A stretch of 31,165 nucleotides of DNA from a virus. Its lineage: Duplodnaviria; Heunggongvirae; Uroviricota; Caudoviricetes. Shown here in pieces: positions 4,451 to 12,488 of this stretch. Both the position numbers and the translations under genes were made by a program. Under the pieces are notes generated by a model that had not been told where the DNA came from, did no database searches, and was given only the letters and a program-made list of their open reading frames with translations. How positions within the stretch are numbered: the stretch's first letter is position 1; each line of letters begins with the position of its first letter. The stretch lies in IMG/VR virus record IMGVR_UViG_2541047931_000001; one strand, 5' to 3'.

Positions 4451-4666
4451 ATGAAATCCATGGATAAGTTAACAACGGGTGTCGCCTATGGCACCTCAGC
4501 AGGTAGTGCCGGGTACTGGTTTTTACAGCTGCTAGATAAAGTCACGCCCTCACAGTGGGCGGCAATTGGAGTGCTGGGTAGCCTGGTATTTGGCCTGCTG
4601 ACGTACCTGACAAACCTTTATTTCAAGATTAAAGAAGATAAGCGTAAGGCTGCGAGAGGTGAATAA
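4451..4666 (+). CDS. essD: Class II holin, phage-21 S21-type pinholin with dual start, 71 aa
   Basis: [10 protein letters not shown]... has the Met1-Lys-Ser-Met4 dual-start arrangement and two hydrophobic segments. SD GAGGTGGGG upstream. Confidence 0.85.
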
Positions 4667-5163
4667 TGTCGCCATCATTACGCAAGGCTGTAGCAGCTGC
4701 TATTGGTGGTGGGGCTGTTGCCATAGCGTCTGTGCTCATCACTGGTCCGAGTGGTGACGATGGTCTGGAAGGTGTCAGCTACATACCATATAAAGATATT
4801 GTTGGTGTATGGACTGTATGTCACGGGCATACAGGAAAAGACATCATGCTCGGTAAAACGTATACCAAAGCAGAATGCAAAGCACTCTTGAATAAAGACC
4901 TTGCCACTGTCGCCAGACAAATTAACCCGTACATCGAAGTCGATATACCGGAAACAACGCGCGGCGCTCTTTACTCATTCGTTTACAACGTGGGTGCTGG
5001 CAATTTCAGAACATCGACGCTTCTTCGCAAAATAAACCAGGGCGATATCAAAGGCGCATGTGATCAGCTACGGCGCTGGACATACGCTGGCGGTAATCAA
5101 TGGAAAGGACTGATGACTCGCCGTGAGATTGAGCGTGAAGTCTGTTTGTGGGGGAAACAATGA
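4666..5163 (+). CDS. rrrD: SAR endolysin (R21-type lysozyme), 165 aa
   Basis: N-terminal Gly/Ala-rich signal-anchor-release segment [18 protein letters not shown] followed by a lysozyme-like domain. Its start overlaps the holin stop (TAATG). Confidence 0.85.
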
Positions 5164-5618
5164 GCAGAGTAACCGCGATTATCTCCGCTCTGGTTATCTG
5201 CATCATCGTCTGCCTGTCATGGGCTGTTAATCATTACCGTGATAACGCCATTACCTACAAAGCCCAGCGCGACAAAAATGTCAGAGAACTGGAGAAGGCG
5301 AACGCCACCATCGCTGACATGCGGAAGCGTCAACGTGATGTAGCAGAACTCGATGCAAGATACACAAAGGAGCTTGCTGATGCTAACGCGACTATCGAAA
5401 GTCTCCGTGCTGATGTTTCTGCTGGGCGTAAGCGCCTGCAAGTCGCCGCCACCTGTGCAAAGTCAACGACCGGAGCCAGCGGCATGGGCGATGGAGAAAG
5501 CCCAGGACTTACAGCAGATGCTGAACTCAATTATTACCGTCTCCGAAGTGGAATCGACAAGATAACCGCGCAGGTTAACTACCTGCAGGAATACATCAGG
5601 ACGCAATGCCTGAAATAA
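5160..5618 (+). CDS. rzpD: Inner-membrane spanin Rz, 152 aa
   Basis: [40 protein letters not shown]... closely resembles lambda Rz. The ATG overlaps the endolysin stop. The ORF-track start at 5148 is GTG. Confidence 0.85.
5380..5565 (+). CDS. rzoD: Outer-membrane lipoprotein spanin Rz1, nested in the +1 frame of Rz
   Basis: Embedded ORF with lipobox LLGVSAC and a Pro-rich segment. AAGGAG lies 8 nt upstream of the ATG at 5380. The ORF-track start at 5353 is the alternative. Confidence 0.65.
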
Positions 5619-5870: not shown

Positions 5871-6317
5871 ATGATCTGCCTCACTGATATGTGGAAAGCC
5901 AGTGGTAAAAGTGAATCTGAATCGCCTTACCACTACCTGCGAAACAAGCAGACCAAAGAGTTCTTAGCCGAGCTGGAGAAAAACCACGAATCTGTGGTTT
6001 TTACTGAGCGCGGTGTACACGGTGGAACATATGGCGGGAAGTTTGTTGCTTACGATTATGCGGCTTGGTTAAACCCCGGGTTCAAGTACGCGGCCTATAA
6101 AGTCCTCGATGACTACTTCACCGGAGAACTTCAGCATCGCAACAGCTTAAGTGCGCAGCTCAACATGAAATGTCATGAGTTTGACCAGAAGAAAGACATG
6201 GCGAGCTTCTGCGGACAAGGGCTGGCAGCATGGCGCTATACGAAGCCAGTGTTGGTCGCTGAGATTAACTCCCTGGCTAACCAGCTGCAGATTACGATCC
6301 CCGGGCTTCCGGGATGA
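5871..6317 (+). CDS. KilA-N-like domain protein, 148 aa as called, possibly N-terminally disrupted
   Basis: GMICLTDMWKASGKSESESPYHYLRNKQTKEFLAEL fits the KilA-N/antirepressor N-domain pattern. An upstream in-frame ATG at 5820 is cut off by TAA at 5844. Confidence 0.4.
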   Translation: MICLTDMWKASGKSESESPYHYLRNKQTKEFLAELEKNHESVVFTERGVHGGTYGGKFVAYDYAAWLNPGFKYAAYKVLDDYFTGELQHRNSLSAQLNMKCHEFDQKKDMASFCGQGLAAWRYTKPVLVAEINSLANQLQITIPGLPG

Positions 6318-6583
6318 GTGATCATGTTATTGAATGCGCCTCCAGAGCGGGGCGCGACTTCTCAGAGTTCATGAAAGGCGAGAAGGGCATGATGGAAGCA
6401 TTGGCCTCGGTGGACGAGTTTGGCGAGCAGCTGCGCCTCAACGGCTGTGTCAATCATCACTTTGTTAGCTACATGATGCGGAACTCGATCATGCAGGCAT
6501 TCATGGACATGGCAAAAGCCGAGAGGAAAGAAGAGCGCCGGCGTAAGCGAGCGGAAGCAAAAGCAAAAGCAAAAGTGAAGTAG
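6314..6583 (+). CDS. Hypothetical protein, 89 aa, Lys/Ala/Glu-rich C-terminal tail
   Basis: Start overlaps the upstream stop (ATGA), suggesting translational coupling. No recognisable family; the C-terminus is encoded by an (AAAGC)n-like run. Confidence 0.35.
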   Translation: MSDHVIECASRAGRDFSEFMKGEKGMMEALASVDEFGEQLRLNGCVNHHFVSYMMRNSIMQAFMDMAKAERKEERRRKRAEAKAKAKVK

Positions 6584-7171
6584 CCATTACAAAGCCCATT
6601 TACGGGTGGGCTTGATAATGAAACCGGAATTTATTCTGGGCCACCAGTTAACGGCAGTACCACGAAACAACCCAAGCCAGTAAGTGGGGAAATAACACCG
6701 GCAGCCACTGAAAGATGAACCTCCTGCCTTATGGCAAAAAAGATTCTTTGTGGTGGCGGACTGATGGAAAGACATCCTAATTTCAGCCAAACATTGAAGG
6801 AGTTGTTATGTCAGCAGAAGGTTTCAATAACCCATCAAAATTCCGGGATGAGTGGGATAGCAGCGTAAAGAGTAAGTGATGCCATCACAAAAGCCATTCC
6901 CTACAGAGTGGCTTTGATAATGGCTTATACCCTACACGGGATAACTTAACTGATATCCCTTTTAAAGGATAAAGGTATTCAAGCCTGACATATCATGCGC
7001 TGTATCGTCGCCGTATTCCCGTATTAACAGAGACCGTAGCCCGACGGGGAACTCCTTCTGCGCGAGTGTGCGGGAATAATCAAAAACGATGCACACCGGG
7101 GTTACCGGGTACACATATTTCATCATGCCAGCGAGTCCGGTTCTGGCACGGAAGAAACCGGACGTTATGAT

Positions 7172-7597
7172 TTAGTGCGGAAATATTTGTGTAGTGTTCT
7201 GAATGTTCTCAGTAAAGAGTAATGAATTATCAAAGGTATAGTAATACCTTTTGTTTTCGTGGATATTTGTAATCCATCTGAAAACCCCTGCTGTAGCAAG
7301 ATTTTTCCTGTATTCGTAAAATGATAACTCTCCTGATTTGAATCCTTTTAAGGTGGCTTCTATAAGGCATTTATTTTTTGAAAATCTTACATTTACAACC
7401 TTACCCTGTCCTTTTATTAAAACCGTATTATCGTTTTCAAGAACAAGATGAATATTCTCTGTGGCTAAATAGTAAATGTAATGTGAGACATTGTGACGTT
7501 TTAGTTCAGAATAAAACCAGTGATAGTTTAAATTATTTCGCACTTTATCGAATATTTGTTTAAAAATGGCAACCTGAGCCATTGTAGTACCTTCCAT
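7172..7597 (-). CDS. Hypothetical protein, AT-rich, 141 aa (136 aa from the more probable start at 7582)
   Basis: Long ORF in a visibly AT-rich segment. GAAGG SD-like element precedes the second ATG (Met6). It lies 42-57 bp downstream of the RHH gene on the same strand. No recognisable motif. Confidence 0.45.
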
Positions 7598-7639
7598 GTG
7601 ATATGAGGGGGCGTAGTCTGCACGATTATCTAAATTGCT

Positions 7640-7873
7640 TCAATCTGGTCTAACCTGTTTTCTGAGCAATTCAGTAATGTCACTCTTTTCTTTGTTTGCT
7701 TCAGGCGAAACTCTTTTTTCTGAGCACAGTCTCCGGCGGCAGGCTTCAATGACCCAGGCTGAGAAATTCCCGGACCCTTTTTGAACAAGAGCGATGTTAA
7801 TTTGTTCAATCATTTGGTTAGGAAAGCGGATGTTGCGGGTTGTTGTTCTGCGGGTTCTGTTCTTCGTTGACAT
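7640..7873 (-). CDS. Arc/Mnt-type ribbon-helix-helix DNA-binding protein, 77 aa
   Basis: RNIRFPNQMIEQINIALVQKGSGNFSAWVIEACRRRL aligns by eye with P22 Arc FNLRWPREVLDLVRKVAEENGRSVNSEIYQRVMESF (beta-strand, helix, G-x-S, helix). Confidence 0.55.
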   Translation of the reverse strand: MSTKNRTRRTTTRNIRFPNQMIEQINIALVQKGSGNFSAWVIEACRRRLCSEKRVSPEANKEKSDITELLRKQVRPD

Positions 7874-7942
7874 GAGGTTGCCCTGTATTCAGTGTCGCTG
7901 ATTTGTATTGTCTGAAGTTGTTTTTACGTTAAGTTGATGCAG

Positions 7943-7975
7943 ATCAATTAATACGATACCTGCGTCATAATTGAT
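7943..7975. promoter_or_regulatory. Inverted repeat, candidate operator upstream of the RHH gene
   Basis: ATCAATTA - 17 bp - TAATTGAT, about 70 bp upstream of the RHH start on the minus strand, with a direct repeat of AAGTTG nearby. Confidence 0.3.
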
Positions 7976-8072
7976 TATTTGACGTGGTTTGATGGCGTAG
8001 ATGCACGTTGTGACATGTAGATGATAATTATTATCATTTTGCGGGTCCTTTCCGGCGATCCGACAGGTTACG

Positions 8073-8084
8073 GGGCGGAAGGCG
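8073..8084. other. cosN, the 12-nt cohesive-end site (variant sequence)
   Basis: Flanks CAGGTTACG | GGGCGGAAGGCG | CGCGGGTTTTCGCTATTTATGAAAATTTTCC are collinear with the lambda cos junction; the 12-mer itself differs from lambda GGGCGGCGACCT at positions 7-12. Confidence 0.7.
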
Positions 8085-8255
8085 CGCGGGTTTTCGCTAT
8101 TTATGAAAATTTTCCGGTTTAAGGCGTTTCCGTTCTTCTTCTCCGTAACTTAATGTTTTTATTTAAAACACCCCCTGAAAAGAAAGGAAACGACAGGTGC
8201 TGAAAACAGGCCTTTTGGCCTCTGTCGTTTCCTTTCTCTGTTTTTGTCCGTGGAA
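8085..8255 (+). promoter_or_regulatory. cosB, terminase small-subunit binding sites R3/R2/R1 with intervening bend site
   Basis: Repeated CGTTTCC / GGAAACG elements (gcgtttccgttcttc; aaggaaacgacagg; tctgtcgtttcctttctc) immediately upstream of Nu1, as in lambda. Confidence 0.65.
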
Positions 8256-8261
8256 TGAACA

Positions 8262-8781
8262 ATGGAAGTCAACAAAAAGCAGCTGGCTGACATTTTCGGT
8301 GCGAGTATCCGTACCATTCAGAACTGGCAGGAACAGGGAATGCCCGTTCTGCGAGGCGGTGGCAAGGGTAATGAGGTGCTTTATGACTCTGCCGCCGTCA
8401 TAAAATGGTATGCCGAAAGGGATGCTGAAATTGAGAACGAAAAGCTGCGCCGGGAGGTTGAAGAATTACGGCTGGCCAGCGAGGCAGATCTTCACCCCGG
8501 AACACTTGAATTTGAGCGCCATCGCCTGACTCGTGCTCAGGCGACGGCGCAGGAACTGAAAAATGCCAAAGAATCGGCTGAAGTGGTGGAAACCGCATTC
8601 TGTACTTTCGTGCTGTCGCGTATAGCAAGGGAAATATCCAGTATTCTCGACGGTATTCCTCTGTCGGTGCAGCGACGTTTTCCTGAGCTGGATAACCGGC
8701 ATATTGATTTCCTGAAACGGGATATCATCAAAGCCATGAACAAAGCAGCCGCGCTGGATGAACTGATACCGGGGTTGCTGA

Positions 8782-8807
<26 letters not shown>
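8262..8807 (+). CDS. Nu1: Terminase small subunit, 181 aa
   Basis: MEVNKKQLADIFGASIRTIQNWQEQGMPVLRGGGKGNEVLYDSAAVIKWYAERD... is near-identical to lambda gpNu1; same length. Confidence 0.95.

Positions 8808-12488
<3,681 letters not shown>

Follow-up and report, generated by a model that had tools for sequence, protein, structure and literature searches.

A partly AT-rich gene pair beside cos in a lambda-like phage consists of known lambdoid accessory genes of the ynfO/ylcI and DUF1398 families

A 31,165-nucleotide stretch of tailed-phage DNA (Caudoviricetes; IMG/VR record IMGVR_UViG_2541047931_000001), referred to here as the window, carries two small minus-strand genes between its lysis genes and its cohesive-end site, cosN. 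This pair consists of known lambdoid accessory genes, one of the ynfO/ylcI family and one of the ydfO/ybcV/lambda p78 family, and is not a novel cassette. Pairing of the two is common and not obligate. The reading we favour, with a probability of roughly 0.55, is that they are two separable accessory genes, a probable regulator (YnfO) and an AT-rich moron (a member of the Pfam family DUF1398), rather than an obligate two-component system.

The first gene of the pair, a member of the ynfO/ylcI family (DUF3950; positions 7640–7873, minus strand), encodes a 77-residue protein beginning MSTKNRTRRTTTRNIRFPNQMIEQINIALVQKGSGNFSAWVIEACRRRL; the second, the DUF1398 gene (7172–7582, or to 7597 from an upstream ATG; minus strand), encodes a protein of 136 or 141 residues. 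A preliminary description of the window had placed two minus-strand open reading frames (ORFs) in the lysis-to-cos accessory slot, and the ORF list bore out their coordinates, strand and spacing; the pair runs leftward, antisense to the late operon. The intergenic gap (7598–7639, minus strand) is 42 bp if DUF1398 translation begins at the first ATG (7597), and the spacing is 57 bp if it begins at the second in-frame ATG (7582). A Shine-Dalgarno sequence, GGAAGG, lies 7 nt upstream of the ATG at 7582, while the ATG at 7597 has none; because of this, and because most homologues are 136 residues long, the start at 7582 is likelier. The AT-richness ascribed to the second gene was also evident: G+C content falls to 0.31–0.32 over 7200–7600 relative to ~0.5 in the flanks, and the gene itself has 31% G+C, with 0.31 at third codon positions, compared with 53% (0.53) for the whole window.

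Both are real genes and not chance ORFs, as judged by matches to curated families and by purifying selection on each. The larger protein matched the DUF1398 profile PF07166 over its full length (147 bits against a cut-off of 22, E = 3e-43; residues 13–131 corresponding to profile positions 1–119 of 119), and the 77-residue protein matched the DUF3950/YlcI-YnfO family (PF13132, 72.8 bits against a cut-off of 25, E = 2e-20; NF041551, 35.2 bits against a cut-off of 30). Named members of PF07166 are YdfO, YbcV, YcgX and lambda p78. The window protein is ~75% identical to E. coli YdfO, for which a nuclear magnetic resonance (NMR) structure is available (2HH8), and 76% identical to lambda p78, and its structural model has the same fold as YdfO. 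Thus, a protein in which the preliminary description recognised no motif belongs to a family with a solved structure, and more than half of all E. coli genomes encode it. That it is functionally uncharacterised is correct, as the literature assigns DUF1398 no function and a 2024 review of the y-ome lists both ynfO and ydfO as uncharacterised.

The defective K-12 prophage Qin contains the same two families, as ydfO-ynfO, in the same order, strand and spacing and at the same position left of cos/nohA. Its 77-residue YnfO is 97% identical to that of the window, and the DNA is 89–90% identical across 7134–8300; its DUF1398 allele shares ~75% amino acid identity with ours, the middle third being the most diverged. 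Lambda (p78 plus an unannotated ylcI) and DLP12-like prophages (ybcV-ybcW-ylcI) also carry both genes in the same slot, between Rz/bor and cos, with DUF1398 proteins 76–77% identical to that of the window. In contrast to the window, a ~600-bp insert with an opposite-strand gene (p79/ybcW) separates DUF1398 from ylcI in these elements, YlcI is a short, 64-residue form with a different tail, and bor lies downstream. Lambda YlcI (MSTKNRTRRTTTRNIRFP...SIKSDEE) shows 94.5% identity to residues 1–55 of the window's YnfO. Its gene lies on the minus strand at 2742–2936 of the HK630/lambda right end (L001), or ~48139–48303 in lambda, and is unannotated in J02459 and in HK630, which has the same p78, p79 and ylcI arrangement; some other lambda-type records call it a “hypothetical protein.” The pair had been presented as a difference from lambda, a view that the p78 orthologue and the unannotated YlcI copy contradict. 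Escherichia phages PhiR49_1, Kati, Chlobot and ev099 are 97–98% identical to the window across this region.

Used as a query, the 819-bp cassette was present in 3802 of 5426 complete E. coli genomes, where its genes are annotated as “DUF1398 domain-containing protein” and “YlcI/YnfO family protein.” Full-length, prophage-type DUF1398 occurred in 3011 E. coli genomes, and the YnfO core in 4162, at 9861 places and with up to 12 copies per genome. Each gene was also found by itself. Phage records contained YnfO in 155 cases and DUF1398 in 43, and 112 of the 155 YnfO records had no DUF1398. Shiga toxin (Stx) phages have the YnfO core and no DUF1398; there, 41 bp separate ynfO from an HNH gene in divergent orientation, and the terminase beside it is a different one. 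In one E. coli prophage (L041), ylcI leads straight to a conserved 3′ block and iss with no DUF1398. Conversely, a distant DUF1398 gene is found in the same lysis-to-Nu1 slot but is not preceded by any YnfO-like ORF, and still more distant DUF1398 genes end aryl-polyene clusters in Pseudocitrobacter and in a metagenome contig. A lack of co-conservation, which the preliminary description had named as grounds for refutation, is thus partly borne out: the pairing is frequent but not obligate, as both genes occur solo.

The aryl-polyene-side homologues (L047–L049; a JGI contig and Pseudocitrobacter) are solitary and directly follow genes for DUF3261, ketoacyl synthases, an ApeP-like protein and ACPS, with no phage genes nearby; they are ~27–31% identical to one distant homologue (P0271). 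The distant homologue P0301 shares 28% identity with the window protein. A species-genome scan for relatives returned mostly lambda sequence in unrelated taxa. Lambda right-end DNA turns up in assemblies under such labels as Pseudomonas, Kitasatospora, Brevibacillus, Flavobacterium and Cohnella, often on contigs of ~3.5 kb or ~48.5 kb, and most likely represents contamination by lambda control DNA (e.g., a sequencing spike-in) and not real hosts. The apparent taxonomic range of both families is therefore inflated.

The boundaries of the DUF1398 gene are those of a movable module. Breakpoints in blastn alignments and the variants of the YnfO tail define a recurrent mosaic joint inside ynfO, at position 7711 (no strand assigned), near codon 54. 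Everything to the right of this joint (the YnfO core, its upstream region, cos and Nu1) is 94–96% identical to lambda, DLP12-like prophages and 2H10; to its left lie the variable tail and the cargo. In blastn comparisons with prophages that have no DUF1398, homology breaks at ~7104 and again at 7711, delimiting a DUF1398 module of ~7104/7134–7710. The separate acquisition that had been suggested from base composition is borne out to this extent: the AT-rich gene behaves like a unit that was inserted and can be separated from its neighbours.

Selection on the two genes differs in degree. Relative to Stx-phage copies, the YnfO core has a ratio of nonsynonymous to synonymous substitution rates (dN/dS, or omega) of 0.06–0.09 at a synonymous divergence (dS) of 0.8–1.5, and DUF1398 has a dN/dS of 0.21–0.37, with omega between 0.05 and 0.40 throughout the gene. 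For the middle third of DUF1398, its more divergent part, we considered diversifying selection and rejected it; dS is also high there, and omega is 0.05–0.29. Because the divergence of this segment extends to silent sites, DUF1398 shows no arms-race signature.

The strong conservation of the YnfO core raised an alternative, that YnfO acts at the packaging/late-operon junction, either binding near cos or modulating late read-through into the terminase genes. The gene always lies directly to the left of packaging genes, in divergent orientation, at a distance of ~390 bp (Nu1/nohA, lambda-type elements) or 41 bp (the HNH gene, Stx phages), and no other coding sequence of the slot is as conserved as its core. 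However, the invariant N-terminal arm and strand persist beside two packaging modules that are unrelated to each other, as is the DNA upstream, and nothing links YnfO to cos function. In the Stx copies, DNA similarity starts at the ynfO start codon (7873) and spans only ~47 codons; the constraint therefore falls on the YnfO protein and not on cos. We regard a packaging role as rather improbable.

YnfO is very basic (pI 10.9) and falls into two parts, a conserved core resembling a ribbon-helix-helix (RHH) domain, encoded by the first ~50 codons (7724–7873), and a variable C-terminal tail. Family members share the near-invariant pattern TTTRNIRFP-NQMIEQINIAL-x-QKGSGNFSAWVIEACRRRL, in which RNIRFP is followed by a helix, G-S-G-N and a second helix. 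An AlphaFold2 (AF2) model of the monomer, in which the N-terminal strand of an RHH fold cannot form, has an extended N-terminus and helices at residues 18–31 and 33–51, with core pLDDT of 76–89. The preliminary description had read the RNIRFP segment as evidence of an Arc/Mnt-type RHH protein. The pattern is real and conserved, but membership of the Arc/Mnt group failed in every profile test. Using Arc, Mnt and CopG sequences, hhalign placed TTRNIRFP of YnfO in register with PQFNLRWP of Arc at a non-significant probability of 1.6%, gave a probability of 0.2% for Mnt, and found nothing significant for CopG. No solved RHH protein was matched in sequence and profile searches of the PDB, a lax Pfam scan of 17 YnfO family members returned no Arc or other RHH family, and the best Foldseek match in the PDB was not significant (E = 8).

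Similar to P22 Arc and Mnt and to RHH antitoxins (RelB, ParD, MazE of B. subtilis and M. tuberculosis, and KacA), YnfO is small and has a basic N-terminal arm and a sequence pattern of the strand-helix-turn-helix type; its weak structural neighbours include RHH antitoxins, and Arc aligns in register. Unlike these proteins, YnfO has no profile-level RHH match; its partner is neither ant-like nor toxin-like and is not obligate. We infer that its N-terminal ~50 residues most likely form a dimeric RHH DNA-binding domain and that YnfO is a regulator of leftward transcription, probably an autorepressor.

DUF1398 is modelled as an orphan alpha/beta fold composed of two alpha-alpha-beta-beta-beta halves; despite this arrangement, the protein has no significant internal sequence repeat. 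It is basic (pI 9.4) and aromatic-rich, its highest 19-residue hydropathy window is 0.39, and a hydropathy scan revealed no signal peptide, hydrophobic or membrane segment. These properties point to a soluble, basic cytoplasmic protein; it would act in the lysogen. No toxin fold or family was matched, and in a scan of PADLOC-DB 2.0 the best match of DUF1398 was Csx23, at E = 0.025, and YnfO had none. Among known morons, DUF1398 resembles lambda bor and other lambdoid accessory genes, which sit in this slot on the strand opposite the late operon, are AT-rich and are dispensable for lytic growth. Bor, however, is a lipoprotein with a serum-resistance phenotype, whereas DUF1398 appears cytoplasmic and has no known phenotype.

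Database labels offer a different view of DUF1398, as a structural or envelope protein. From PHROG 413, the label “head protein” has passed into RefSeq records of phages, including that of lambda (NC_001416), where it is attached to p78, and older lambda records call DUF1398 a “putative envelope protein.” These labels are all that favours such a role. The gene lies on the strand opposite the late operon, its product has neither a signal peptide nor a hydrophobic segment, the family also occurs at non-phage chromosomal sites, and lambda p78 was found to be non-essential by CRISPR interference (PMC10695390). We set both labels aside as inconsistent with the orientation of the gene, the solubility of the protein and the non-essentiality of p78; DUF1398 has no envelope or virion signature, and a structural or envelope function is extremely unlikely.

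Published observations on the K-12 members are scattered. A ybcV::Kan strain is viable (PMC3945230). The ydfO transcript rose ~100-fold after ionic-liquid shock (PMC4077768), ybcV and ybcW were ~10-fold down in a pdhR mutant (PMC7660256), and ybcV was up in a sabinene-tolerant strain (PMC7181518). A more than 1000-fold rise of ybcV with T4 MotB was reported in BL21(DE3); this may reflect late read-through from lambda-DE3 mapped across near-identical copies. TraDIS (transposon-directed sequencing of insertion sites) calls ydfO “essential,” which may be an artefact of mapping to repeats. We rejected one further claim, that YdfO overexpression protects against oxidative stress (PMC4077768), because it stems from a mix-up of the gene names YdfO and YfdO: the paper cited for it (PMC3105296) names YfdO, YfdK and YfdS of CPS-53 and never ydfO.

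Under the favoured reading of two separable genes, YnfO would be a small RHH-type DNA-binding protein of the cos-proximal block that regulates leftward transcription, its own first and then that of any downstream cargo. DUF1398 would be a separately mobile, AT-rich moron that has entered between ynfO and a conserved 3′ block, which carries a terminator hairpin. The gene would either share the ynfO transcript or use a weak promoter within the gap, with transcription running up to this hairpin. Dispensable for lytic growth, its product would have a cytoplasmic role in the lysogen, possibly nucleic-acid binding, which is our best guess at its activity. Going by base composition only, the gene may be silenced by H-NS.

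The conserved block, ~230 nt long, lies downstream of the DUF1398 stop codon (6881–7114, minus strand) and keeps ~90% identity in Stx phages and other DUF1398-free prophages. It is closed by a hairpin (6881–6924, minus strand; inner stem and T-run at 6888–6913) with compensatory changes between relatives (GCCAC/GTGGC versus GCCCA/TGGGC), likely the terminator of the leftward transcript. The block could be a 3′ untranslated region (UTR), a terminator or a small RNA. A 54-residue ORF within it (6962–7126) has frame-breaking indels in relatives and was discarded as probably non-coding. The fold z-score was only −1.9, and an Rfam scan of 6400–8400 yielded sub-threshold microRNA noise only. In lambda, only the proximal ~140 nt (~6996–7133) are recognisable, at ~81% identity, and overlap the annotated bor promoter.

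No terminator-like site was seen between ynfO and DUF1398. A candidate sigma-70-like promoter, TAGACC-16-GATAAT (7652–7625, minus strand), is weak, matching the consensus at 9 of 12 positions in a scan whose number of matches around the gap did not exceed the shuffled expectation. Upstream of ynfO, an inverted repeat, ATCAATTAATACG-N7-CGTCATAATTGAT (7943–7975, no strand assigned), lies 70–102 bp from the start codon and is a candidate operator or promoter element; it is identical in the lambda, Qin, DLP12-like and 2H10 copies.

Several observations weigh against the reading of separable genes or against the roles it would assign them. The inverted repeat is absent upstream of Stx-phage ynfO, leaving the operator idea without independent support. 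The promoter and terminator calls are consensus or hairpin matches only, and the suggestion that DUF1398 binds nucleic acid derives from its composition only. Finally, among the 80 IMG/VR loci most like the 77-residue, long-tail form of ynfO, 79 have DUF1398 ~40 bp downstream, a pattern also compatible with the two proteins being functionally paired through the YnfO tail. Two DUF1398 alleles, sharing only 75% identity, occur among these 79 loci. However, this sample is biased towards near-identical alleles and DNA, and linkage accounts for the association. At the single exception (L085, 400–1500), an IS5-type transposase gene (338 residues) directly follows the 77-residue ynfO, and an endolysin gene is next.

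These data bear on the chief alternative, that the pair forms a two-component module in which YnfO, as an RHH regulator or antitoxin, binds a DUF1398 effector through its C-terminal helix, be it a toxin-antitoxin, abortive-infection or superinfection-exclusion system. Besides the association of the long-tail allele with DUF1398, the tight spacing of the genes and the predicted helix in the YnfO tail (residues 58–71) fit such a module. It is harder to reconcile with DUF1398 genes that have no YnfO at all, with the many YnfO records that have no DUF1398, or with lambda and DLP12-like elements, where DUF1398 and a short-tail YlcI are ~600 bp apart, separated by a gene on the opposite strand. The YnfO tails of the window and Qin are near-identical while their DUF1398 proteins differ by 25%, so tail and partner do not co-vary. 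In addition, DUF1398 has an orphan, non-toxin fold and is under uniform purifying selection, and our literature searches turned up no report of DUF1398 toxicity neutralised by YnfO. We therefore consider a two-component module unlikely. The resemblance to toxin-antitoxin, abortive-infection and superinfection-exclusion layouts drawn in the preliminary description is not supported, given genes that are often solo, the lack of a match to a toxin or defence family and the missing arms-race signature.

A more specific version seems doubtful to us as well. In it, long-tail YnfO and DUF1398 would constitute an unrecognised prophage two-component system in which the C-terminal helix restrains an orphan-fold, possibly nucleic-acid-binding effector, whose release on infection or stress alters host or phage expression. 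Were this correct, it would supply a function for lambda p78 and for three K-12 y-genes at once. With two separable accessory genes, the value of the analysis lies mainly in tidying up a known and ubiquitous pair, with corrections to the unsupported “head” and “envelope” labels, to the annotation of lambda YlcI and to the YdfO/YfdO mix-up. What is left to gain is a function for one of the last unassigned lambda ORFs, its RHH-like neighbour and several K-12 y-genes.

On the plus strand of the window, the endolysin gene (4666–5163) is followed by an Rz-like gene (5148–5618), past which the late operon continues (5871–6583, plus strand) with a KilA-N/ORF11CD3 gene (5871–6317, plus strand; 148 residues; a weak PADLOC match to PDC-S22, E = 4e-8) and then a gene for an 89-residue PHROG 875 protein with a lysine-rich tail. 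Both of these proteins are common to Stx phages. Nu1 starts at 8262 and terminase A at 8782.

The accessory slot is limited on its right by cosN, whose cohesive end (8073–8084, plus strand) reads GGGCGGAAGGCG, as determined by direct comparison with lambda-type copies. This 12-nt sequence differs at positions 7–12 from the lambda-type GGGCGGCGACCT, which is carried by Qin, DLP12-like prophages, 2H10 and other relatives, including one with a 100% identical DUF1398. The variant is natural, as GGGCGGAAGGCG has exact matches in 12 IMG/VR contigs.
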